Shown: one piece after another, positions 9,864-51,380 of the stretch
How positions within the stretch are numbered: the stretch's first letter is position 1
How the letters are laid out: every line of letters begins with the position of its first letter
Assembly (NCBI GenBank): GCA_963756875.1
Contig: CAVWPA010000003.1
Location: forward strand, 128,001 to 192,000
Reading direction: 5' to 3'
Source of the DNA: an uncultured Verrucomicrobiae bacterium
GTDB taxonomy: Bacteria; Verrucomicrobiota; Verrucomicrobiia; Chthoniobacterales; UBA10450
Length of the DNA stretch: 64,000 nucleotides
Translations under genes and position numbers: made by a program
Notes under the pieces: model-generated
What the model saw: the letters and a program-made list of their open reading frames with translations, nothing else
What the model was told of the DNA's origin: nothing
Databases searched by the model: none

Positions 9864-10428
9864 TGATCTGCTGGTGCTCCTGGAAAAGCTCCTGGTATTT
9901 GCGTTCCAGCTCCGCGTAACGGCGCTCGACTTCCTCCAGCGCGCGACGTTCTTCACGCAAACTTTGCTCCAGGTCGCGAATGCGTTCCGGCATGTCGATT
10001 GAAATGCCGCTTGCTGCGGGCTCGTTGGAAATGTTGGGCTCCGTCTCCTCACTCGAGGCGAAGGGAGTTTGGTCGCCGAGTTGCAGCATGGCCGACATTT
10101 CCAGGACCTGCCGCCGCGTTCCGTCGCAGGAATTGATTACGAATGTTTCTTCATTGATTTCGCCAAGGCGAATAAACTCCTGGATCGCACCAAGCGTGGT
10201 CGGCCCGTAGTAGCGTTCACTGGTAATTTCCACCAGCCAATCCATACCCAGTTCCGGGACCATCGGCGCTTTGATCCAGCTTCTCTGATCGCCCGAAACC
10301 ATGTCGTGCGGGGCTACCTGGGCGGCCGATGCCCACCGCGCAAGCTGTTCAAACGAAAGTGGCCCGAAAATGGTGCCGTCTTCGTGCTTGCGCAGGAACC
10401 AGCTTTGAGTCGTGGCCGATTCTTCCAT
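9859..10428 (-). CDS. Tandem GYF_2 (DUF4339)-like protein with C-terminal coiled coil
   Basis: Two W-x(n)-[FY]GP repeats (WFLR..FGPLSFEQL; WLVE..YGPTTL) and an EER-rich helix. Confidence 0.6.
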   Translation of the reverse strand: MEESATTQSWFLRKHEDGTIFGPLSFEQLARWASAAQVAPHDMVSGDQRSWIKAPMVPELGMDWLVEITSERYYGPTTLGAIQEFIRLGEINEETFVINSCDGTRRQVLEMSAMLQLGDQTPFASSEETEPNISNEPAASGISIDMPERIRDLEQSLREERRALEEVERRYAELERKYQELFQEHQQIT

Positions 10429-10440
10429 TAATCATTCGCC

Positions 10441-10923
10441 TTAAGGGGACGCGGCGGGCGCAGGCGTGGGTGAAGGTGGAATTAAAATGGTTTGGCCGGC
10501 CTGCAACCTCAGCGGGTTGTCGATGTGATTGTATTGCTGCAGCTCGCCCACGCTCACGTTGTGCGCCCTGGCGATGGAAGTCAGTGTCTCGCCGCGCCCG
10601 ACAATGTACGAGTTTTCAGCTCCCGCTTTCGCCGGCTCGACGATCGCGACTGAAGCCCTCTTCGCCGGCGTTGGCGTGGCTTCTCCGATCATCACGCCGG
10701 GACGCATCTTCGCAATCTGCCGCTCGAGCTGGAGGATATGTTGCGAGAGCGCGTCGATCTTTGCATTTTGTTCGTCGATTTTTTTGGCCAGCGCCCGGAG
10801 CTCGCTGGTCTGCGTCGGCTTGGCCGTTGGTTCGACCGGCCTCGGAGCAAAAGTTTGGGCCAAAGCCGCCCGACCGGGAAATGCCACCAGAACCAGCGCG
10901 ACCAGGGCAGCGGCGGATTTCAT
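10441..10923 (-). CDS. Secreted LysM peptidoglycan-binding protein
   Basis: Signal peptide MKSAAALV.., coiled coil, YIVGRGETLTSIARAHNVSVGELQQYN. Confidence 0.85.
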   Translation of the reverse strand: MKSAAALVALVLVAFPGRAALAQTFAPRPVEPTAKPTQTSELRALAKKIDEQNAKIDALSQHILQLERQIAKMRPGVMIGEATPTPAKRASVAIVEPAKAGAENSYIVGRGETLTSIARAHNVSVGELQQYNHIDNPLRLQAGQTILIPPSPTPAPAASP

Positions 10924-10985
10924 TCCCCTGATTTTGGCATCACCGGCTTTTTCTGGCAAGCCGGTCGCGCTCTTATATGCGGCTA

Positions 10986-11262
10986 GGAGGCTGTTGAAAT
11001 GCTGGAATGGGTCGCGCGTAGAGGCAGAAGGGGCGGATGGCAAGAAGCGAGTGAGGCGCATCCCCTTTAGCGGGCTGCAACGAGCGAGTGACGCGGCCAG
11101 CCGCCCCTTCTGCCTCGCGCCCGGTGGGTTGCGTCGTTTTTGGCGTTGGCCAACGTTGCTCGCTTGGCCGAGATCGCTGCGGATATCGGCGCTGCGCTCG
11201 CGCCTTGGCCAACGCCAAAAATCAACAGCAACTCGGCCCACTCCAGTATTTCAACAGTCTCC
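10986..11262. mobile_element. Non-autonomous MITE, 277 bp
   Basis: 29-bp terminal inverted repeats (10986-11014 and 11234-11262, 25/29 match, GGAGRCTGTTGAAAT...), TA on both flanks, two long internal inverted repeats, no transposase. Confidence 0.8.
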
Positions 11263-11300
11263 TATCTTGCCTTTGGTCCATTTCGCCTTAGTTTTTTAAC

Positions 11301-11477
11301 ATGCCGGAGCGCACTCAAAAACCAATCGATCCTGCTCCGTGGGGCCCGAAAGAAGGCGAGGGCGGCGGCCCGCGGTCGCCGGATATTTCCAGGCCCGACA
11401 CAAAGGATCTCCTAAAAAAGATGCGCAAGGTCGATCCCAATCAATCCAAGCGCTATCGTCAGCGCACGGGTCAATAA
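11301..11477 (+). CDS. ubact: UBact, prokaryotic ubiquitin-like (Pup-analogous) protein, 58 aa
   Basis: Manual translation MPERTQKPIDPAPWGPKEGEGGGPRSPDISRPDTKDLLKKMRKVDPNQSKRYRQRTGQ*; C-terminal R[TS]G[EQ] signature; directly upstream of proteasome beta and alpha. Confidence 0.92.
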   Translation: MPERTQKPIDPAPWGPKEGEGGGPRSPDISRPDTKDLLKKMRKVDPNQSKRYRQRTGQ

Positions 11478-11491
11478 ATGGAGTCTCTTCG

Positions 11492-12292
11492 GTGACGTTT
11501 GACCAGAATTTCTCTGGCGCGACGGAGGATTTTCCCGCGCTTCTGCGCCGGAAAGGCCTGCTGCAACAGGTGCCCCAACTGAATCAGACTGCCGTCGACC
11601 CGGCATTTGTGCAGACGGAATCCACTACGATTCTGGCCTTCAAATTCGCAGGCGGCGTTTTAGTGGCCGGCGACCGGCGCGCCACCTCTGGCAACACCGT
11701 GGTTTACGATCGGGCGGACAAAGTGCTCGAAATCGACCGGCACTCCATCATGGCGATCGCCGGTGTGCCGGCCACCGCATGGGAAATGGCGCGCGTGCTC
11801 GAGCACTCGTTTCAATATTTTCGCCGCACCCAGTTGCAGGAGATGAGCGTGGATGGAAAAGTCCGCGCCCTTTCCAAACTGCTGCGCGATAACTTCGGGC
11901 TCGTAATGAGAGGTGTCGGCGTAGTAGTGCCTATTTTTGCGACGTACGATTCGAATTCCTCGTCCGGAGCACGGCTTTACTTTTACGATGCGATGGGTGC
12001 GCAATTCGAAGTGACAGACTACGCTGCGACCGGCTCTGGGTCGCCGGCCGTGCGCGGTATCCTGTATTACGAAAATCACTGGGGCGGCAAGCCGTTACAG
12101 GAACTGAACGAAGAGGACGCTATCACGCTGGCCTTGCGCGCGCTGGACACCGCTGCGGAAGCAGACACCTCTACCGGCGGCGTCGATCGCGGTGGCAGGA
12201 TTTTTCCGATCATCAAGATCGTGTCGCGTGAAGGAATTACCACGCTCGCGGACGAAAAAATCGCCGCCGTTTTTCAGAAAACTGTCGCATGA
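11492..12292 (+). CDS. prcB: 20S proteasome beta subunit
   Basis: GTG start after a GGAG; mature TTILAFKFAGGVLVAGDRRAT...DK places Thr1, Asp17 and Lys33 correctly; TGSGS motif. Confidence 0.92.
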   Translation: MTFDQNFSGATEDFPALLRRKGLLQQVPQLNQTAVDPAFVQTESTTILAFKFAGGVLVAGDRRATSGNTVVYDRADKVLEIDRHSIMAIAGVPATAWEMARVLEHSFQYFRRTQLQEMSVDGKVRALSKLLRDNFGLVMRGVGVVVPIFATYDSNSSSGARLYFYDAMGAQFEVTDYAATGSGSPAVRGILYYENHWGGKPLQELNEEDAITLALRALDTAAEADTSTGGVDRGGRIFPIIKIVSREGITTLADEKIAAVFQKTVA

Positions 12293-13068
12293 TCGAGGAA
12301 CCTTATCGGTGGGTCGAGGCGATCGCCAACCGGCGCGAGTACATCGAAACTCAACTGGCAACGGGGCGGCCAATCGCGGCGATCGGCTACCGCGACGGCA
12401 TTTTGTTCTTAACGCTCGGTCGAACGCGGCAAAAGATTTTCGAGATTTACGATCGCGTCGCGATGGGGGCAATCGGGCATCCGGGCGATATCGAGCGGCT
12501 GCGCATGGCGGCGATCGAACTGGCAAGCACGGAAGGGTTCACCCGCTCGGCGGCAGACGTTTCGTTGCGGCGTCTGGCGTACTACTCGCTTAGTCCCTTG
12601 ATGAAAAGCGCGTTCGAGCAGGTTTACGGAGCGCCATATCTGGCCCGGCTCCTTTTTGCCGAGGTTGGTTCGAAACCGGAGGAAGATTTATTTTTGCGGG
12701 TCGATTACGACGGTGCCATTGCCACGAACGGTGCCTCTGTTTCACAACGACAGCGTGATTTTGGTGTTCTGGGCGCAAACCGTCGGTCGGCGGAGCTGAT
12801 GGAATCGTTTTTGCAAAAGGAAAACGCCGCGGGCGCGAGTCTGGAAGAGGCGATCCAAGTAGCGATGAACGCGTGGACTGTAGGCCAGATGGCGACCGGC
12901 GAAGATGCGATAAAGGAATTGCCGAAGTCCGACGCAATTGCCACGTATCGACAAAATCAACTCGGCGAAGCCGGCGTGGAAGCTGCCATTTTGGAACGTG
13001 ACAACAAAACGGCGATTCGTTATCGCATCTTGTCCGACGAAGAAGTTCACTCTTTAATCAAGGCCTAG
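12289..13068 (+). CDS. prcA: 20S proteasome alpha subunit
   Basis: ATGA overlap with beta; KIFEIYDRVAMGAIG and downstream motifs resemble bacterial PrcA. Confidence 0.88.
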   Translation: MIEEPYRWVEAIANRREYIETQLATGRPIAAIGYRDGILFLTLGRTRQKIFEIYDRVAMGAIGHPGDIERLRMAAIELASTEGFTRSAADVSLRRLAYYSLSPLMKSAFEQVYGAPYLARLLFAEVGSKPEEDLFLRVDYDGAIATNGASVSQRQRDFGVLGANRRSAELMESFLQKENAAGASLEEAIQVAMNAWTVGQMATGEDAIKELPKSDAIATYRQNQLGEAGVEAAILERDNKTAIRYRILSDEEVHSLIKA

Positions 13069-13073
13069 ACGCT

Positions 13074-13868
13074 ATGTCTCGACTGCGACTACCGGTTCCG
13101 GCGGGTACGCAAGATTTTGTCGCCTGGTTTGGCTTGCTGCTCATGGTCGTATCGTTTGCCTGGTTGCAGTGGGTTACGCGGCCGCCATCCTCTTCGGCGC
13201 GCTCAACGGCCTCGCCCGGCCCATTCTCGCTTGTGGTAATCGATCCCGGGCATGGAGGGCAGGATTCCGGTGCGATGTGTGGCGGAGTGCTTGAGAAGGA
13301 TCTGACGCTCGATGTCGCACAGCGGATCGACCGGCTGTTGCAGGCACAAGGGATCGCCACGCTCATGACGCGGACCGGCGACAGCTATCTTTCGCTGGCC
13401 GATCGCGCCGCGATCACCAATCGGGCGCGCGACTGCATTTTCGTGAGTATTCACTTCAACGAAGGGAGCAAACCGGTTTCCAGCGGGGTGGAAACATATT
13501 ACGCCGAGCACCAGATGCCCGCCAAGGAGCCGCTCGTTTCCTGGCTCCCCTTTCTGCAGCGCACAGCTTTGGAGACACCGAATTTCCAGAGCCAAAGCCT
13601 CGCCGGTTTCATTCAGCAAGCGCTGGTGACCGGCACCCAGGAGACAGACCGTGGAACAAAGGCCAGCCAGTTTTTTGTGATCGCGAACGTGCGACACCCC
13701 GCGGTTCTGGTGGAGGGAGGCTTCCTGAGCAACAAGGAAGAAATCGGCAAGTTGCAGAACCCGGATTACCGCGAGCAAATGGCCGCTGCCATCACGCAAG
13801 GAATCGCCCGCTATCGCGACGTATTGAAGCAACGCCAGGGAATACTGGCCGCCACCGGCGGCCGCTGA
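13074..13868 (+). CDS. N-acetylmuramoyl-L-alanine amidase (Amidase_3)
   Basis: VVIDPGHGG, EKDLTL, SIHFN, VLVEGGFLSN; N-terminal TM anchor. Confidence 0.92.
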   Translation: MSRLRLPVPAGTQDFVAWFGLLLMVVSFAWLQWVTRPPSSSARSTASPGPFSLVVIDPGHGGQDSGAMCGGVLEKDLTLDVAQRIDRLLQAQGIATLMTRTGDSYLSLADRAAITNRARDCIFVSIHFNEGSKPVSSGVETYYAEHQMPAKEPLVSWLPFLQRTALETPNFQSQSLAGFIQQALVTGTQETDRGTKASQFFVIANVRHPAVLVEGGFLSNKEEIGKLQNPDYREQMAAAITQGIARYRDVLKQRQGILAATGGR

Positions 13869-13905
13869 ATAGCCGGGGAATAGCCGCGTCAAAGCAACCA
13901 TCGAC

Positions 13906-14634
13906 ATGAAAACCATCATTCCGGCCCTCATTCTTCTGGCCTCGGTCTCGCTTCTCCGCGCCGACCAAACCATCCAGAACGTGCAACAGGCGCTCAAGGA
14001 TCAGGGCTTCTATTACGGCACACTTACGGGCGAAAAAAATGCGGACACGATTGCGGCAATCCGGCGTTATCAAATTCGCAACGGCTTGCAGGTGACCGGC
14101 GAACTCGACGACGAGACACTCCGCGCACTTGGAGTTGGAAAATCCTCGCACTCCGTCGCAAAGACAAGGCCTTCAGCCACGCCGGAAACCGCCGACTCCC
14201 GAACCACGTCGCGCGAAGAAGCTATTCCCGCCAGCCCGACGCCGGCGGAGCTCGCCTCGACACGGCCGCCGGATCGAGAAGTCGTGTATCCTAGCAGGGC
14301 CACAGCCGCGACACTGGAAGGGGGCGATCTTTTCGCCAGAACGCCATATGAGACGGCGTCTCCCGAGGTCCAGCGCAACGTGGTTCTTTCCGCTCAACGC
14401 AGCCTCGCACAACGCGGTCTTTACCGCGACGAACTCGATGGCATTTATGGCCCGAGCATGGCGTTTTCCTTGCGCGCTTATCAGGCGCGCGCCAAACTGC
14501 CTGTCACGGGGCGGCTCGACCTGGAAACGTTGGCCGCGCTTCGACTTTTGCCGGGCGCAAACACGCCGGTTTACGTTCCCCACCGGCGATTCCTTCGGGA
14601 GCGACCGGTCCGCGGCGAATGGATTCGGGAATAA
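13906..14634 (+). CDS. Secreted protein with two peptidoglycan-binding (PG_binding_1) domains
   Basis: VQQALKDQGFY..AIRRYQ..GLQVTGELD and AQRSLAQRGLY..DGIYG..LPVTGRLD. Confidence 0.85.
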   Translation: MKTIIPALILLASVSLLRADQTIQNVQQALKDQGFYYGTLTGEKNADTIAAIRRYQIRNGLQVTGELDDETLRALGVGKSSHSVAKTRPSATPETADSRTTSREEAIPASPTPAELASTRPPDREVVYPSRATAATLEGGDLFARTPYETASPEVQRNVVLSAQRSLAQRGLYRDELDGIYGPSMAFSLRAYQARAKLPVTGRLDLETLAALRLLPGANTPVYVPHRRFLRERPVRGEWIRE

Positions 14635-14662
14635 ATTCCGGTCGGCGCCCTGAGCGCTGTAC

Positions 14663-15535
14663 CTAATGTGCCGACGCGGCAGCCGGGTTGTGTTGCGATC
14701 TCTCGGGCTCGAGCCGGGCAGACTGCAACTCGCCGAAGACGGTGCCGATAAAAATCTGCGCCTCGGCGCGAAGCGGCAGCCGATTTGCGTCGTCGGAAAT
14801 CCAAATGGTGGCGCGGCGGAATTTGCGATGCGGCTCCAATTCGAAATGCTTGCCAATCTTGTGAAGCCGTAAATCGAGTTTGATCGCATTGTATGTCCCT
14901 GGGCGGACGGAAATCTTTTCCCGCCCGGTCACCGTCAACGTTGCCAGGTAGGCGGAAGTCGCGGGATAAATAACGACCCGATAAACGCTGCCGTTAGTGA
15001 GAGGCTGACTCCGCAGATAGAGAAGCGCCGAATGCATATCGAACAAATTCGTGAAATCGAAGTTGCGTGTCTTGCTTTTGGAAGCATTAGGCCATTCGAC
15101 ACGTTTGCTTTCGACGCCGCCGTTATTGAAAAAAAGGCCGGTGAAAAGCTTTTTCGACCGGTAGCTTTCCGTTTGGTTCGATTCGATGGGGCGCAACGTG
15201 TCTGCATTGACGATCGAGCGGTAATTCACATCGAACTTCCACAGCAGGCGCGCCAATCCGACCGTGCGACCTGTTCCTTCGAGTTGAAAGCGGTCGCTGG
15301 GAGTCTTCGAAAAATGCACTTCAGCCGTGGCAGCAGTCAGCCCGGCCCAACCAAACCGATAAGTGGCACGAACCGACCGGGGCGTGGGAAAATTGCCCGG
15401 AGGCTCTTTACTGACTGTGGATTGCCAGCCGGTAGCATCGCAAATCCCGGGAATAAGACAGGCAACAGTCGCAATGGAAAGAACAGAACACGAAGGCCGC
15501 GGAAGAATGCAGGGCAAAAAGCTTGAAAAGTTCAC
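14663..15535 (-). CDS. DUF3108-like secreted protein
   Basis: Signal peptide; GREKISVRPGTYNA, IWISDDANRLPLR. Confidence 0.7.
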   Translation of the reverse strand: MNFSSFLPCILPRPSCSVLSIATVACLIPGICDATGWQSTVSKEPPGNFPTPRSVRATYRFGWAGLTAATAEVHFSKTPSDRFQLEGTGRTVGLARLLWKFDVNYRSIVNADTLRPIESNQTESYRSKKLFTGLFFNNGGVESKRVEWPNASKSKTRNFDFTNLFDMHSALLYLRSQPLTNGSVYRVVIYPATSAYLATLTVTGREKISVRPGTYNAIKLDLRLHKIGKHFELEPHRKFRRATIWISDDANRLPLRAEAQIFIGTVFGELQSARLEPERSQHNPAAASAH

Positions 15536-15609: not shown

Positions 15610-16218
15610 CTACGGTTTTTTGGCGGGCGGACTCTTGGTGGCTGGTGCGGCCCGGCCCGGCTTGTTCAGGACGGCGATCACGTCATTGGTAAAATCGACG
15701 TCGTTCCTGGAGTACATCAGCAACGGGACGCCGTTGAGGCTCATACCGGATTTATCAAAAACAAAGTCGAGGTTATTGGCTTTGACCTTCTCCATCACGA
15801 CATCGGTAATTTCCTTAACGATGCCTTCCCGCATGCGCAGGGCCTGCTCCTGAAGCTGGCGCTCGCGGGTCTGGCGAAATTCAGTGATCTCCCGCTCCAT
15901 GTTTTTGATATTGGCGATTTTGTCGTCGCGCTCTTTTGCCGTTTGCGCCTTTTTATCCGCGCTTAATGCGGGCGAATCGAGTTGCTTGTTCAGGCCGTTG
16001 ACCTCGTCGAGCACCTTCTTATATGCGTTGGCACGGTCGTCGTATTCTTTTTTGGCCTGATTTTTGGCTTCGTTAATTTTCGCCTCCGCGTCCTTGGTTT
16101 TGTTGAATTCCTTGAAGGCGCGATTCATATCAACGGTGCCGATTTTGATGCTTTGCCCACGCGCTGCGATGGGCAACACAAGCGCCGAGACAAGAGTGAG
16201 AAGGAGGAGTTTTTTCAT
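15610..16218 (-). CDS. skp: Skp/OmpH periplasmic chaperone
   Basis: KIGTVDM, long coiled coil, LDFVFDKS..DFTNDVI; follows bamA. Confidence 0.9.
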   Translation of the reverse strand: MKKLLLLTLVSALVLPIAARGQSIKIGTVDMNRAFKEFNKTKDAEAKINEAKNQAKKEYDDRANAYKKVLDEVNGLNKQLDSPALSADKKAQTAKERDDKIANIKNMEREITEFRQTRERQLQEQALRMREGIVKEITDVVMEKVKANNLDFVFDKSGMSLNGVPLLMYSRNDVDFTNDVIAVLNKPGRAAPATKSPPAKKP

Positions 16219-16274
16219 AGACAGGGATAAACAGTTCGTCGGAAATCGGTTAGACTGCAAGCATCAATATTCGT

Positions 16275-18743
16275 TCAAAATTGGTAGCCAACACTGAAGT
16301 TGATGTTTCCCTTTTTGCTGTTTCCAGCGCTCTGGGCAGGGATGCCGTAGTCGATCCGGAGCGGGCCGATGGGCAGATCCAGCCGGATCCCAATGCCAAA
16401 GTCGGACGCGAGGTCATAATAAGTTGAGCGAGGTCCCGTGGCGCCAGCTAGAATTCTCCTGGGATTACGCGGGATTGTCTGATCCTTCGGGGAGAAATCC
16501 CAGGCATCGGTGTTAACAAATCCGACGTCGTAAAAGAGTGCGCCCCGTGTTTTTATCACCAGCGGAAACGTCAACTCCACGGTGGCCCGAGCCAGCGACT
16601 GGCCGCCGATTGGCTGGTTATTGTTGTCCCTCGGGCTGACATCGCGAAATTGAAACCCGCGCAGATTTCCGGAGCCGCCAAGATAAAGACGGTCGTAAAT
16701 CGGAACGTTGGGGATCACTTCTGGAACCGTGTTGATGCCGGGGGGGGCGACAGCGCCGATCGAATTCACATAAATCGTTTTACTCTCCGGCTGGTTCCAA
16801 ACATCCACTGTCGCTGCTTCGCCATTGATCAACAGGATCAGGTCCCCGGGGAAATGGAAGTATTGTGACGCCTCCAGGTCCCAGCCATAGATCTGTTCGT
16901 TCCCGCCGAGGAAACCGCCCGACACATACGGAGCGAGAGAAATACGCTGCCCGTGCCGCGTCAAAAAGGGACTGTCGCGCCGATCGAAAACGAGACTGGT
17001 GCTGACCTGGCTCTTTACCTGCGAGCCCGCCTCGTTCTGGATCTCCGCAGAGACACCTGTCGCCACGTTGTAGATCTCGATATCCTGTAACCCGTAGCCC
17101 AAGGTACCGTACGTGTAGGGAAAGAGCGGTTTGCGCAACTCAACCGAGAAGCCGTAGTTGCGCTGGTCATATACCGAGCTCAGATAATTCGCTTCACTGT
17201 AGAAGGCTTGCCCACCCAGCGAAAGACGCTGATCCAGAAACCAGGGCTCCGTCAATGCCAGGAGAAAATCTTTCCGCTGCGTGCCAACCTGCGCGCGCGC
17301 CCGAAACTTCTCGCCGCCTCCGGTAAACGCCGGCCAGTTCGTCAAATCGAAGTTGCCCTGTGTTAGCTCAACAAACCCAACCAGACTGTCGACCGTGCTA
17401 AACCCGGCACCGAAGTTAAGCGACCCGGTCCGCTTCTCTTCCACTTGAATTACCAGGTCCTTGCGAGCCTCAACCCCGGTATCTTCAGGATAGGTGTCGA
17501 CCTTCGAAAAATAACCAAGGTTCTCGAGGCGCTTCTTACTGATATCCACCCGCACTGTGTTGAACACTTCGCCCGGGGCGATGAGAACTTCGCGCCGAAT
17601 CACCTTATCCTTGGTCCGCGAGTTGCCGACGATGCTTATCCGTTGAACAAACGAGCGCTGGCCCTCTTCGATCTTGTAATGAATGTCGATCCTGCCGGGG
17701 CCGGCCGGAGACCCTTCCGGTTGAATCACCGTATCGACGTAGCCACCCGTGCCGTAAGCGTCCGCGATGGCCTTGGCGTCGTCGTGCAATTGTTTCGGCG
17801 AATAAACCGCGCCCGCCTTCATCTTAATCACGCCCTCAAGTTTCTTCAGATCGGCCGCCTTGTAACCGGAGAATGAAATCTTGTTGGCGTGATATTTAAT
17901 CCCTTCGTTGAGCGCGATTGTGATCACCATTTTCCTGCGTACACGCTCTTTGCGCACGTCTTTTACCTCGACGTCGATGTAACCGTGGTTCTGATAGAAC
18001 TCCTTAACCTTCTCCAGGTCCTCCTGCAGCTGCGCTTCATCCAGACGGCCCGACTTGTCGAAAAATGCAAAGAGTGTCTTGCCCTTTGTCTTCATTTGAT
18101 GGCGCAGCACCTTGTCGCTGAAGTGCTCGTTACCTTCGAATTCGACCCGCGCGACCGCCCCTTTTACTCCCTCGGTCACCGTGTAAACCACACGCGCCGT
18201 CCCCCGCTTTTCGTCGATCGGCTCCACTCGATACTGCACGGCGACGTCGGTAAACCCATGGATCTGATACGTCTCGATAATCTTCTGGCGTCCTTTTTCG
18301 AGTTCCTCCTCCCTTACCGGCGCATTCAGTCTCAAGCCAGAGTCTTTCCGGATTTTCTTCGCCTTAATTCGCTTGGCCCCTTCGATGACGATCTCGCGCA
18401 CGATGGCGCGCGGCTGCACCGCGACGACCACTTTTACTCCGTCACTCCGGGGCTTGGCGTAGATTCGCACGTTCTGGACCGAGCCGGTCTTGTACAGGCT
18501 GCGAATGTCGTCCTCCACCACCTGATCAGAATAGGGCTGGCCGACCGCGGTCCTCATGTGCGCCAGAATGCGTTCCTGAGAAATCGTCGCGGGTCCCATG
18601 TATTGCACCTCAATCGACCGGACAATCGGCGCTCCCTGGCCAGCTCCCTGCCCGTCCGCCGGGCCCGCGCCGAGCAACACCAAAAGCAGTGTCATCGAAC
18701 CCAGAGACGCGCGGGCCCAAATTAAAACGCGAGATTGTCTCAT
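16275..18743 (-). CDS. bamA: Outer membrane protein assembly factor BamA
   Basis: POTRA repeats, LRGF motif, C-terminal GYQF. Confidence 0.95.
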   Translation of the reverse strand: MRQSRVLIWARASLGSMTLLLVLLGAGPADGQGAGQGAPIVRSIEVQYMGPATISQERILAHMRTAVGQPYSDQVVEDDIRSLYKTGSVQNVRIYAKPRSDGVKVVVAVQPRAIVREIVIEGAKRIKAKKIRKDSGLRLNAPVREEELEKGRQKIIETYQIHGFTDVAVQYRVEPIDEKRGTARVVYTVTEGVKGAVARVEFEGNEHFSDKVLRHQMKTKGKTLFAFFDKSGRLDEAQLQEDLEKVKEFYQNHGYIDVEVKDVRKERVRRKMVITIALNEGIKYHANKISFSGYKAADLKKLEGVIKMKAGAVYSPKQLHDDAKAIADAYGTGGYVDTVIQPEGSPAGPGRIDIHYKIEEGQRSFVQRISIVGNSRTKDKVIRREVLIAPGEVFNTVRVDISKKRLENLGYFSKVDTYPEDTGVEARKDLVIQVEEKRTGSLNFGAGFSTVDSLVGFVELTQGNFDLTNWPAFTGGGEKFRARAQVGTQRKDFLLALTEPWFLDQRLSLGGQAFYSEANYLSSVYDQRNYGFSVELRKPLFPYTYGTLGYGLQDIEIYNVATGVSAEIQNEAGSQVKSQVSTSLVFDRRDSPFLTRHGQRISLAPYVSGGFLGGNEQIYGWDLEASQYFHFPGDLILLINGEAATVDVWNQPESKTIYVNSIGAVAPPGINTVPEVIPNVPIYDRLYLGGSGNLRGFQFRDVSPRDNNNQPIGGQSLARATVELTFPLVIKTRGALFYDVGFVNTDAWDFSPKDQTIPRNPRRILAGATGPRSTYYDLASDFGIGIRLDLPIGPLRIDYGIPAQSAGNSKKGNINFSVGYQF

Positions 18744-23755: not shown

Positions 23756-24154
23756 TCAGGTGATGGCGACAGCCTGAAAGGAGCTGACGACGTCGTCCGG
23801 GCCTTTCGCGGTGAAGAAGCTTTCGTAATAGCCGGGGCCGAGGTCCCAGTGCGGGCCCTTGTAATATTCGTCGCGATAAAAGCGCCAGACGCCACTTACC
23901 ACAATGAGGCAACTGATCCGATCGTCCCAAAAATCGCCGACGTAAAGAAAACTCAGATTCGTACGAGCGTAGGCGCCTTTGAAACCGGTGTGATCGTAAA
24001 CCACCAGCTCTGGCAGGCGAATAATCTCCTTGGACGGCTCCACAGCAACCTTGCCGACGCCGCTGGCGTGATAACTGAGCGGGCCAAGCTTCCATTTCGT
24101 GTCGATGATACAGCCGTTGTCCGGCGACAATTCAGTTTTCGGTATTTGTCTCAT
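23756..24154 (-). CDS. Beta/gamma-crystallin domain protein
   Basis: VYDHTGFKG..DDRISCLIVVSGVWRFYRDEYYKG..LGPG.Y..DDVVSSF Greek-key motifs. Confidence 0.75.
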   Translation of the reverse strand: MRQIPKTELSPDNGCIIDTKWKLGPLSYHASGVGKVAVEPSKEIIRLPELVVYDHTGFKGAYARTNLSFLYVGDFWDDRISCLIVVSGVWRFYRDEYYKGPHWDLGPGYYESFFTAKGPDDVVSSFQAVAIT

Positions 24155-24331
24155 AAGCGGCGAATGTTTGTTCCCGATTTTGGACGACCCAAAGGCCGAT
24201 GTCGAGCCGATTAGTGGAGGCAAAATGGTGTGGACACAAGATCCCAAATCCCAAGCACCAACTCCGAAAGCTTTCGCGAGCGGGCCTCCAGGGAGGCTCC
24301 AATCGCCAAATCTCAAACTCGTACCAGATTT

Positions 24332-24424
24332 CAACCGCGAATTACGCGGATTCAAACGAATGCCGAGCAGAACGTTCTCTTTTCTCTGCTCTGAAATCCG
24401 CGGCATCCGCGTAATCCGCGGTTA
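24332..24424. repeat. CGCGGAT-periodic palindrome
   Basis: aaccgcgaattacgcggatt ... aatccgcggcatccgcgtaatccgcggtt; related copy at 29432-29512. Confidence 0.75.
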
Positions 24425-28914: not shown

Positions 28915-29427
28915 ATGCTTCCCCTCTCCTACCGTTCGCCAAAGACCGAAGTGCGCGAGAGCAAAATCCACGGGCGCGGATTGTTCGCCACGGCCGATAT
29001 CGCCAAAGACGAAATCGTGGCGGTAAAAGGCGGCCACATCATCGATCGCGAAACGCTTCAGGGCGACGTGGCGCGGAAGCTCGGCCCGGTTGAAATTCAA
29101 ATCGACGACGATTTGTTCGTCGCGCCGGTCACGGCCGGGGAACGCGAGCTCTCGATGCTCTATTCGAACCATTCGTGCGATGCGAACATCGGCATGCGCG
29201 GCGAGATCACGTTTGTCGCAATGCGCGACATTCGCGAGGGCGAAGAACTCACTCACGATTGGTGCACGACCGATGACGACAATTACTCAATGGAGTGCAA
29301 GTGCGGCTCGGCCAGCTGCCGGAAAATCCTTACCGGCAAAGATTGGCAGCGGTCTGAGTTGCAGAAGCGCTACGCGGGATATTTCTCAGCGTATCTGGCG
29401 CGAAAAATCGCCCAGCTTCGGAATTAA
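28915..29427 (+). CDS. SET-domain protein with post-SET motif
   Basis: IHGRGLFA, NHSCDAN, GEELTHD, CKCGSASC. Confidence 0.9.
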   Translation: MLPLSYRSPKTEVRESKIHGRGLFATADIAKDEIVAVKGGHIIDRETLQGDVARKLGPVEIQIDDDLFVAPVTAGERELSMLYSNHSCDANIGMRGEITFVAMRDIREGEELTHDWCTTDDDNYSMECKCGSASCRKILTGKDWQRSELQKRYAGYFSAYLARKIAQLRN

Positions 29428-48311: not shown

Positions 48312-49409
48312 TTACGCGCTGATGCGCATGGGCATGAGCACGTACAGAAATGGTGTCTGTATTTTCAGAACGCCCGGGCTCATCTCGTCAATAAGATCCA
48401 GAAAGACTTCGTCCTCGGCGAGGTTCCGCAACGGCGCCATCAAAAACTCGGGATTGAAGGCGATCGAAAATTCGCGGCCTTTGTACTGAACGGGCAATGA
48501 TTCCTTCGCTTCGCCGACTTCCGGCGTGTTGGCAGTGATGTCGATGTTGTTCTTGGTGAAATTGAGCTTGATCGAGTTGGACTTGTCGCTGGCCAGCAAC
48601 GAAACGCGACGGAGGGAATTCAGGAATGTTTCCCGCTCCAGCGTAACGCGTTCCTTCGTTTCCGCCGGGATCACCTGTTTGTAATTTGGATAATTACCTT
48701 CGATCAATTTCGAAACGAGCAGCGTTTTGTTCAGATCGAAGGCGATTTGCCCGGAGCCGACGCTTACTTTCACGTCGCCATCGTCCGTGAGGAGCCGTTG
48801 CAGTTCGGTTACCGCCTTGGTCGGGACGATAATGTCGGTTTCGTGGCTGCGCGGAAACTCCAGCTCGATGTCCACCATGGCCAGTCTCCGGCCATCGGTC
48901 GCCACCAATATGAGCTTGTTGTCCTTAAAACTGAATAGAACGCCGTTGAGAACGTAGCGCGTTTCATCCGTCGAGATGGCGTAGGCGGTTTTGCGCAGGC
49001 CATCGCGCAAATCCTTCTGGCGCATCGTGACAATCTTGGCGTTTTCGAATTTCGGAAGGGGCGGAAATTCTTCCTCCGGCAAACCAAGAATCTTGAAGAA
49101 ACTCTGCCCGCTGCGGATGGAAGCGGTATTCTTCCCATCCACATCGACCTGGATTTCGCTGGAGGGCAGCTCGCGTACGATATTGAAAAGACGCCGGGCC
49201 GGCAGGGTAGTCGCACCTTCTTTTTCCACCTGAGCTTCGAAACTTCCGCGCACGCCGACGTCGAGGTCGGTGGTGGTGAGATGCACTTCGCCGCCGTTTG
49301 CCTGGAGCAGCACGTTCGAAAGGATGGGCAACGTCGTTCGTGTACTGACTACATTTTGAACCTGTTGCAGGCCTTCGAGCAGTTTTTCTTTCGTAGCGAT
49401 AAATTTCAT
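48312..49409 (-). CDS. dnaN: DNA polymerase III beta clamp
   Basis: TLPILSN, ATDGRRL, YVLMPMR. Confidence 0.97.
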   Translation of the reverse strand: MKFIATKEKLLEGLQQVQNVVSTRTTLPILSNVLLQANGGEVHLTTTDLDVGVRGSFEAQVEKEGATTLPARRLFNIVRELPSSEIQVDVDGKNTASIRSGQSFFKILGLPEEEFPPLPKFENAKIVTMRQKDLRDGLRKTAYAISTDETRYVLNGVLFSFKDNKLILVATDGRRLAMVDIELEFPRSHETDIIVPTKAVTELQRLLTDDGDVKVSVGSGQIAFDLNKTLLVSKLIEGNYPNYKQVIPAETKERVTLERETFLNSLRRVSLLASDKSNSIKLNFTKNNIDITANTPEVGEAKESLPVQYKGREFSIAFNPEFLMAPLRNLAEDEVFLDLIDEMSPGVLKIQTPFLYVLMPMRISA

Positions 49410-49497
49410 AACGAGAGAAGCGCCTAAGATGTAAAGCCTCCGATTTTATTCGGCAACCGTAAAGTCACATCGGGCAGCTGGGATGGCAGTTGCACTC

Positions 49498-50853
49498 TCA
49501 GCGTTGTAGCGAGCTGTCGATAAAGGAAACGGTCTGGCGAACGTTGTCTTCATCCTTCATCCTCCTCTTCACCAGCTTGCAGGCGTGCAAGACCGTGCCG
49601 TGATCGCGTCCGCCAAACGCATCGCCAATTTCGTTGAGCGACATTTTGGTCAGCTCGCGCGCAAGGTACATCGCCACCTGGCGCGGGAAAGCGATATTGG
49701 CCGGGCGACGTTTGCTTGTCATGTCGGCCAGGCGCACGTCGAAATGCTCCGCCACGCGCCGTTGGATTTGCTCGATGGTAACGGAGTGTCGCGCCTCCTC
49801 CTGCAGAATGTCCTTTAAAAGACGCTCGATGACGTCACGCGTGAGCTCCTTGCCGCTGATTGAAGCGAAAGAGGCCACGCGCAGCAGCGCCCCCTCCAGG
49901 CGACGCACGTTGGTGCGAATGCGGTTCGCCAGAAATTCAAAAACTTCGTCCGGCAATTTCACCTGCATCGTGCGCGCTTTCTTCCGAAGAATCGCAAGGC
50001 GCGTCTCAACGTCCGGCGGCTGAAGCTCGGCCGTCAGTCCCCATTCAAAGCGGGAGACCAGCCGTTGCTCGAGATTGGCAATTTCGGACGCCGGACGATC
50101 GCTCGAGAGCACAATCTGTTTATGTCCGTCGAAGAGGGTGTTGAACGTGTGAAAAAATTCCTCCTGCGAACGTTCCTTGCCGCTTAGGAACTGGATGTCG
50201 TCGATGAGCAAAAGATCGGCCTGTCGGTAGCGTTTGCGAAACTTGACCAGATTACTGTGCTGGATGGCGTCGATGAATTCGTTAATGAAAAGCTCGCTCG
50301 AGAGATAAATGACCTTCGTATTTTTCTTTTTCGCCAGGACATACTGTCCGATTGCCTGCATCAGGTGCGTCTTGCCCAGGCCGACGCCGCCATAAACAAA
50401 AAGCGGGTTGTAGGTTCGCGCAGGTGCTTGCGCCACGGCCAGGCTCGCCGCATGCGCGATCTCGTTGTTCGGGCCAACGACGAAAGATTCGAATGTATTG
50501 CGCGGATTCAGCCCAGGAGCGGCACCAGAGGATTTGTTCGCGCGAACCGGGTCCGGTGTTTTCAGGGCGCTCGTTTTCTCAGGAATGAGCTCGCCCATCG
50601 GCTCGGACGGCGAAACGAATTTTACCTCGCGCGGTCCGCCAAAAACGTCGGCGATGGCTGTCTGTAATGCGGCCATATGGTTACTCTCAATCCAGTATTG
50701 GTAGATGTTGTTAGGGACACGAAAGGTAAAGGCGTCCTCAGATGCGTCGACTAATTCGAGGGCGGAAAACCAGCGCTTAAATGTGTCGCTGCTGACCTGC
50801 GGCTGTAATGCCGAGGACAGTTTCTGCCAAAGCTCCGCACACTTTTCGTCCAT
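49498..50853 (-). CDS. dnaA: Chromosomal replication initiator
   Basis: YNPLF.YGGVGLGKTHL, DDIQF, GGRDHGTV; start placed at MDEKC. Confidence 0.97.
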   Translation of the reverse strand: MDEKCAELWQKLSSALQPQVSSDTFKRWFSALELVDASEDAFTFRVPNNIYQYWIESNHMAALQTAIADVFGGPREVKFVSPSEPMGELIPEKTSALKTPDPVRANKSSGAAPGLNPRNTFESFVVGPNNEIAHAASLAVAQAPARTYNPLFVYGGVGLGKTHLMQAIGQYVLAKKKNTKVIYLSSELFINEFIDAIQHSNLVKFRKRYRQADLLLIDDIQFLSGKERSQEEFFHTFNTLFDGHKQIVLSSDRPASEIANLEQRLVSRFEWGLTAELQPPDVETRLAILRKKARTMQVKLPDEVFEFLANRIRTNVRRLEGALLRVASFASISGKELTRDVIERLLKDILQEEARHSVTIEQIQRRVAEHFDVRLADMTSKRRPANIAFPRQVAMYLARELTKMSLNEIGDAFGGRDHGTVLHACKLVKRRMKDEDNVRQTVSFIDSSLQR

Positions 50854-51380
50854 ACTTGTTAACAGCGTTACACAATTGCCACAAAGGCGCGCAACGAGGG
50901 GAAATGGCTCGTGAATGCCGCGTTGCACCATGGCTGGCAAGTGCGATAGGTAGCTGGGAAATGGCTCAAAAAATTGCGCAAATCACGGAAATACGAGGGG
51001 AAATCCGCCTTTGCGCATCGCAGACATTGCGCGCTCGCGGCAAGATCAAGATATTGTCCAGAGAGGCGCGTCAGTAGGGTCAAGGCATCGGTCATTCTCA
51101 CGAATCAATTTTTCTCAGAAATGTTCACATCTTATTCACATCCCGTCCGTTTTCTCCCTGCCAGCGGCTCGAGATTAGAAACCGCGTGCGGAATCGACAA
51201 GACAAAATCTGAATTTTATTTTCGCGCGCTGATAAAAAAATCTTGACTGAAAAAGCAATTGGATATCGCCCCAAGCACGCGGCAGTAAAACGGTGAACGC
51301 GTACACGCAGACGAGTCGAAAGACTCCGGTAAGTTGACCAGGTTTGGGCATGCGCACATTTTTTTCTGCCAATAAATCGC
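50854..51380. promoter_or_regulatory. dnaA upstream region, candidate oriC
   Basis: AT-richer non-coding gap; TTATTCACA at 51132-51140 next to degenerate ATGTTCACA at 51121-51129. Confidence 0.45.

Follow-up and report, generated by a model that had tools for sequence, protein, structure and literature searches.

The 64-kb stretch of DNA analysed here (the window) carries the tag gene and the two core protease genes of a UBact (Pup-like) tag-plus-protease module. With good confidence we read this module as one with genes scattered across the chromosome, the gene for the PafA-type ligase most likely being unassembled. In the clade to which the genome belongs, the Chthoniobacterales near Ca. 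Udaeobacter, a split layout of these genes is the rule.

The tag gene ubact (11301..11477, + strand) has 58 codons, starting with MPERTQKP and ending with RYRQRTGQ before a TAA stop codon. UBact proteins are small proteins with the final residues Arg-[Thr/Ser]-Gly-[Glu/Gln], and the encoded 58-aa ubiquitin-like tag closes with such a motif, Arg-Thr-Gly-Gln (RTGQ). The original prediction had named the tag UBact from its letters and proposed a comparison with UBact and Pup models. This comparison bears the name out, as the protein reaches 82.1 bits on the Pfam profile PF20513 (cut-off 27.8) and 82.7 bits on the NCBIfam profile NF033388 (cut-off 35). Searched against Pfam with E-values up to 1, the 58-aa tag has UBact as its sole family and no Pup match. 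In a genome-wide search the ubact gene was the single UBact match.

Fourteen nt behind ubact follows prcB (11492..12292, + strand), which opens with GTG at 11492 and encodes the 20S proteasome beta subunit of 266 aa. Its TGA stop codon (12290-12292) shares a 4-nt ATGA overlap with the ATG at 12289 of prcA (12289..13068, + strand), the gene of the alpha subunit of 259 aa. This arrangement of a short ORF, a 14-nt gap and two overlapping proteasome genes had been predicted at exactly these positions, and the three genes form a tight operon. A promoter and terminator scan of the region 10900-14900 gave counts no higher than in shuffled sequence.

In the whole assembly only prcB and prcA match the proteasome profile PF00227, PrcB with 105.9 bits and PrcA with 24.6 bits (cut-off 22.4). 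On TIGR03690 PrcB scores 167.6 bits, which is below the equivalog cut-off of 191.9, and on TIGR03691 PrcA scores 89.9 bits, which is below the cut-off of 139. The best solved relatives of PrcA are the PrcA chains of M. tuberculosis and Rhodococcus (E 3e-15). In an alignment to the mature beta chains 1q5q_H (Rhodococcus) and 2fhg_H (M. tuberculosis) Thr45 of PrcB falls on residue 1, with GDRR and DKV likewise retained. Therefore PrcB appears to carry a propeptide of 44 residues and to have kept its nucleophile intact.

The neighbourhood of this operon was compared with the 80 best related prcB loci, at all of which PrcA was found. Only 5 nt past prcA begins a gene for an N-acetylmuramoyl-L-alanine amidase (13074..13868, + strand; PF01520 Amidase_3, 172.9 bits), a homologue of which is present at 77 of the 80 loci. 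This gene is possibly co-transcribed with prcBA but is not known to belong to the system, and as the compared loci stem from closely related genomes, its linkage may reflect no more than inherited synteny. The second conserved downstream neighbour encodes a protein with a peptidoglycan-binding domain (13906..14634, + strand; PF01471 PG_binding_1, 96.9 bits, two repeats) and occurs at 65 of the 80 loci. Upstream of ubact a divergent gene for a LysM-domain protein (10441..11241, - strand; PF01476 LysM, 52.8 bits) is found at 75 of them, and its true start is probably internal to the ORF 10441..11241. About 2.5 kb downstream of prcA and on the opposite strand lie the genes of the periplasmic chaperone Skp/OmpH (15610..16260, - strand; PF03938 OmpH, 72.5 bits) and of BamA (16275..18743, - strand; PF01103 Omp85, 198 bits, four POTRA repeats), a context that speaks of an outer membrane. 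The diderm host that had been predicted from these two genes is thereby confirmed. The same holds for the predicted lack of dop, pafA and arc in the 64 kb: in total 64 ORFs of at least 90 aa were picked in the window and all were scanned, and none of them encodes a Pup ligase or a proteasomal ATPase.

Outside the window, the Pup_ligase profile PF03136 has one match in the genome. It lies on the same contig as ubact, 1.24 Mb away, and is a gene of the Dop type (C3:1383957-1385333; 552 bits). The encoded enzyme scores 494 bits on the Dop model TIGR03688 (cut-off 492.3) and 389 bits on the PafA model (cut-off 551.3). Compared with Dop from Acidothermus (4b0r) it gives 404 bits over the full length, including the Dop-loop region, whereas the alignment with PafA from C. 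glutamicum (4b0t) starts at residue 78 and gives 256 bits. With this gene the terminal Gln of UBact has its expected deamidase.

A gene for an Mpa/ARC-type ATPase of 561 aa is situated 121 nt upstream of the dop-type gene. The protein has the domains Prot_ATP_ID_OB_N and Prot_ATP_ID_OB_C, one AAA module and a putative coiled-coil region, and matches Mpa of M. tuberculosis (7px9) with 355 bits. On TIGR03689 it reaches 463 bits, below the equivalog cut-off of 504.75. The NCBIfam equivalog cut-offs missed by Mpa, PrcB and PrcA belong to models made largely of actinobacterial sequences, and missing them counts against our best explanation. The C-terminal tail of this ATPase, Ser-Gly-Val-Ile, is conserved in the relatives. 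In actinobacterial Mpa, on the other hand, Tyr is the penultimate residue of the tail. Because of this difference docking of the ATPase to the 20S core is only putative, which is a second point against the best explanation. No match to Bpa (PF10759) was found in this genome, and the control genomes likewise had none. Dop, Mpa and PrcB are 85%, 88% and 86% identical, respectively, to their counterparts in the relative G017. Thus the identity of Dop is in line with that of the other two proteins and there is no sign of accelerated change or of a changed function.

The original prediction had offered two ways out for a tag without enzymes nearby, a system split across the genome or the use of other partners. 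The first was right, since mpa and the dop-type gene lie 1.24 Mb off, and the second finds no support. With both an Mpa/ARC ATPase and a Dop-type deamidase on the same contig the orphan aspect disappears. The genome-wide search for Pup_ligase and ARC/Mpa homologues suggested there was successful for the Dop type and Mpa, and returned no PafA type.

The split is also seen in the related genomes. In the flanks of the 80 best related UBact-prcBA loci no match to Mpa, Dop or PafA was found; sequence of at least 5 kb was available to either side in 48 of them. Where relatives have long contigs, distances of 0.5-2 Mb separate the three loci of the system, as in G012 (1.95, 1.48 and 0.32 Mb), G017 (3.51, 1.40 and 0.85 Mb) and G030 (1.33, 3.30 and 0.84 Mb). 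G029 alone has a PafA-class gene within 6 kb of the tag. In nine out of 12 relatives examined the genes mpa and dop are direct or near neighbours; in G001 a distance of 3.5 kb separates them, and G020 and G031 have them on separate contigs. For pafA a third separate locus was found in 22 of the 24 relatives from the family of this genome. A literature search found no paper on a dispersed UBact gene order.

The main evidence that these distant loci form one pathway is the co-occurrence of UBact, PrcB and Pup_ligase family by family. In total 40 relatives were searched, and the tallies include three unpublished genomes (G002, G007, G014). Taking these relatives and this genome together, all three components were found in six families (f1, f5, f6, f7, f8 and f15), and all three are absent from the remaining ten families (11 genomes, 91-100% complete). 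Within the family of this genome Pup_ligase was found in 24 of 24 relatives, UBact in 22 and PrcB in 23.

A PafA-type gene, or a remnant of one, could be identified in this assembly neither with the Pfam model nor with the PafA protein of a relative at E-values up to 10. The latter query had Dop as its sole match in this genome. In 22 of the 24 family relatives there are two Pup_ligase places, one with 540-562 bits and the other with 388-433 bits, or fragments of them. Three proteins of the lower class were scanned, and all of them match the PafA model best and over the full length, with 322-332 bits that remain below its cut-off. Only the Dop class was found in this genome and in G001 (96% complete), and only the PafA class in G013.

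The assembly comprises 2,686,387 bases in 3 contigs and is 87.59% complete. It has no match to 16S rRNA, for which 14 of 14 control genomes gave a match, and tRNA-Asn and tRNA-Ile are absent among its 39 tRNAs. Because the assembly lacks these essential genes, the absence of PafA cannot be read as a loss. An incomplete assembly, together with the two paralogues in 22 of 24 relatives, makes an assembly gap the probable cause, and the gene of the PafA-type ligase most likely belongs to sequence that the assembly does not contain. None of the contig ends (3 kb each) matches any other part of the assembly, so that no contig joins can be inferred. Three DNA sequencing runs carry shares of 0.32, 0.19 and 0.05 of the sampled words and a fourth run (X4) next to none, and among the runs listed as carriers there is no RNA run.

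The alternative is that the ligase was truly lost here, and perhaps in G001. In this case the Dop-type enzyme would also ligate, or UBact would act unconjugated, in a non-covalent role such as that of a free Mpa adaptor. We regard such a loss as unlikely, although several observations fit it. Neither this genome nor the 96%-complete G001 has a PafA-type match, and the Dop-only state of G001 counts against our best explanation. Furthermore, what is accessible of Hecht et al. 2020 (PMC7947786) reports that Dop becomes a ligase through a few substitutions combined with removal of its loop, and that just one homologue exists in some Planctomycetes. Here, however, the Dop loop region is kept and the enzyme shares 85% identity with Dop from a PafA-carrying relative. 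At a completeness of 68-100%, chance alone predicts one to two of 25 genomes without any given gene, and G013 is without the Dop type in like manner. In addition, the PrcB of this genome is 86% identical to that of G017 and 81% identical to that of G001. As judged by PrcB, this genome and G001 are therefore not mutual closest kin, and two separate losses would be needed. The essential genes demonstrably missing from the assembly (16S rRNA, tRNA-Asn and tRNA-Ile) weigh against a loss as well.

The surroundings of pafA in the relatives bear on the same question. For this comparison ORFs were taken from the surroundings of pafA in 10 relatives and from about 180 kb on either side of and including pafA in G017, the closest relative, and were mapped to this genome. 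Of the genes that usually flank pafA (two HtrA-like PDZ proteases, a DUF5069 gene and two unnamed ones) only distant paralogues were found here, and the whole pafA neighbourhood of the relatives is missing, as would be expected after a loss. Those orthologues of pafA-flanking genes that do exist here are located mid-contig, away from the contig ends. Therefore no assembly gap can be pointed to, which again argues against the gap. The small size of the genome (2.69 Mb) would also suit a loss, as would the fact that in G017 (4.3 Mb) pafA lies within a region of about 180 kb having almost no orthologues in this genome. Five relatives have the genes that adjoin the one conserved flank of this genome at other places. 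With a gene order shuffled within the family and an accessory region in G017, synteny cannot separate a deletion from an assembly gap. If true, the loss of the ligase in a streamlined soil verrucomicrobium that retains UBact-Gln, Dop, Mpa and the 20S core would represent a natural one-enzyme version of pupylation.

Returning to the dispersed module with an unassembled PafA-type gene, its working can be proposed by analogy. Dop would convert the C-terminal Gln of UBact to Glu, the side chain of which a PafA-type ligase would then join to lysines of substrate proteins. Mpa would bind the tag, unfold the substrate and feed it to the PrcAB core, and Dop would in addition remove the tag and recycle it. 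All these steps are modelled on the actinobacterial Pup system; what was observed is that the parts are present and intact and that they co-occur. The literature search found no demonstrated conjugation, deamidation or degradation for any UBact system and no bench test of the pathway; this too counts against the best explanation.

One could also suppose that the 20S proteasome mostly dispenses with tagging and acts on unfolded or damaged proteins delivered by Mpa or by another activator, and that the distant mpa-dop pair and UBact are only loosely coupled to it. The separate transcription of ubact-prcBA and the enzyme genes would agree with this, and so would the Mpa tail, which is unlike the actinobacterial docking motif, and the fixed neighbours of the operon, which are cell-wall genes and not tagging genes. 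Nevertheless we consider it very unlikely, since ubact stands at the head of the protease operon, with prcB following after 14 nt, in 78 of the 80 best related loci, and tag, protease and Pup-ligase family co-occur strictly across 16 families. Moreover, an activator of the Bpa type was unmatched, in a search that had no positive control.

One might take the 58-codon ORF for a chance open frame or leader peptide instead of a tag, given its shortness and the 25 nt before its ATG, which contain no visible Shine-Dalgarno-like purine run, but with HMM E-values of 2e-23, with both protein ends kept in 26 genomes and with 515 of 708 nucleotide differences on third codon positions this idea is refuted for practical purposes. 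The 26 genomes are this one and 25 relatives, two unpublished ubact-carrying genomes being excluded. In this set UBact begins with MPER (or its variants MAER and MPDR) and ends with RYRQRTG[QE]. The differences were counted over the last 42 codons against the 25 relatives and amount to 116, 77 and 515 for codon positions 1, 2 and 3. Such a third-position bias is typical of genes that are translated and kept by purifying selection. The last residue is Gln in 21 of the 26 genomes and Glu in five (G008, G015, G016, G024, G031), and all five of the latter have a Dop-class match.

Lehmann, Udasin, Livneh and Ciechanover reportedly described in 2017 the UBact-proteasome gene cluster of Gram-negative phyla, which is said to be one cluster in the order mpa-dop-ubact-prcB-prcA-pafA. 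The system described here shares with it the tag family (PF20513, NF033388) with a C-terminal Arg-Thr-Gly-Gln/Glu, the position of the tag gene directly before prcB-prcA, the diderm host, the Mpa-type ATPase and the Dop-type enzyme. In contrast to that single cluster, the genes here form two groups, mpa-dop and ubact-prcB-prcA, with 1.24 Mb between them; pafA occupies a third locus in the relatives, and searches of this assembly did not return it. With the actinobacterial Pup system (in M. tuberculosis Pup, Dop, PafA, Mpa/ARC and PrcBA) the enzyme families are common. The Pup tag ends with Gly-Gln just like this UBact, which implies deamidation before ligation. The two systems differ in that the tag here matches the UBact model only (Pfam, E up to 1), in the Mpa tail (Ser-Gly-Val-Ile here, Tyr-containing in Actinobacteria), in the dispersed genes and in the diderm host.

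According to the portion of Iyer et al. 2008 (PMC2588565) that was available, Pup is invariably found next to a gene of the PafA family, and Pup-like conjugation genes occur in Verrucomicrobia. This rule fails in the clade studied here, the nearest gene of the Pup-ligase family in this genome being 1.24 Mb away. A tag beside a PafA-family gene is, though, a feature of gene order and not of function. Sporadic Dop and PafA homologues in Verrucomicrobia are also mentioned in the text at hand of Hecht et al. 2020 (PMC7947786). Going by the nearest related loci, this genome belongs to the same soil lineage as Candidatus Udaeobacter copiosus, for which a proteasome is reported and amino-acid recycling is proposed (Brewer et al. 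2016, bioRxiv 10.1101/053942). UBact, gene order and enzymes go unmentioned in the accessible part of that account.

The system is therefore of a known kind, as the UBact family is catalogued in Pfam and NCBIfam and a proteasome is in print for Ca. Udaeobacter, at least in the excerpt available of that report. The dispersed layout is a gene-order difference inside this known system. The most abundant bacteria in soil include Chthoniobacterales of the Ca. Udaeobacter type. Because the genes lie at three or four distant loci, the pathway is in this clade not recognisable from one neighbourhood, and an orphan-looking operon of tag and proteasome should consequently not be read as a new system.

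The Mpa-type proteasomal ATPase of the genome studied here (L003:8145-9830, corresponding to G000:C3:1382144-1383829) ends in Ser-Gly-Val-Ile. When its orthologues (L135-L145) are compared, this tail is unchanged in six related genomes (G017, G012, G006, G008, G030 and G021), and near-alike tails are found in three others: Arg-Ile-Ile in G028, Ala-Val-Ile in G029 and Glu-Val-Ile in G038. In actinobacterial Mpa the penultimate residue of the tail is a tyrosine, which is required for docking to the 20S core, whereas valine or isoleucine occupies the same position in G000 and these relatives. As the only PF00227 matches in the G000 assembly are prcB and prcA, it has no HslV-type match. With regard to RNA genes, the assembly contains a tRNA-Sec (anticodon TCA), but tRNA-Asn, tRNA-Ile and 16S rRNA are all missing from it.

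The proteasome operon is flanked by cell-wall genes (window 13074-14634 and 10441-11241) in 65 to 77 of the 80 related loci, namely an Amidase_3 gene 5 nt past prcA, a gene for a PG_binding_1 protein and a divergent one for a LysM protein. Because the relatives compared are close kin, these flanks may reflect nothing beyond inherited synteny. Elsewhere in the window, dnaN and dnaA (48312-50940, minus strand) are followed at 50.9-52.6 kb by approximately 1.7 kb of short ORFs only, without Pfam match, and this region is probably the site of the replication origin, at a distance of about 40 kb from the UBact operon. The window also encodes a beta/gamma-crystallin-domain protein (23756-24406, minus strand, 37.5 bits) and a SET-domain protein of 170 aa (28915-29427, plus strand, 44.9 bits); both domains are uncommon among bacteria.

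The surroundings of pafA, the ligase gene, recur among the relatives, in G008 (L010:1505-4659 and 10363-14823) and also in L004, L007, L009, L012 and L013. Two of the recurring neighbours are HtrA-like proteins, one combining Trypsin_2 with PDZ and the other carrying PDZ alone; the rest are a DUF5069 protein and a pair of proteins without Pfam match. All five are absent from the G000 assembly. Thus in the relatives protein-quality-control genes cluster around the ligase gene.

Directly after dop, the deamidase gene of G000, lies a small ORF (L003:11538-12014, minus strand) with a weak match to IS200-like transposases (Y1_Tnp, 22.4 bits, slightly below the cut-off). An ORF of G012, located between mpa and dop (L137:4861-5376), shows 36% identity to it. 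Mobile elements may have contributed to the scattering of the UBact-proteasome cluster.
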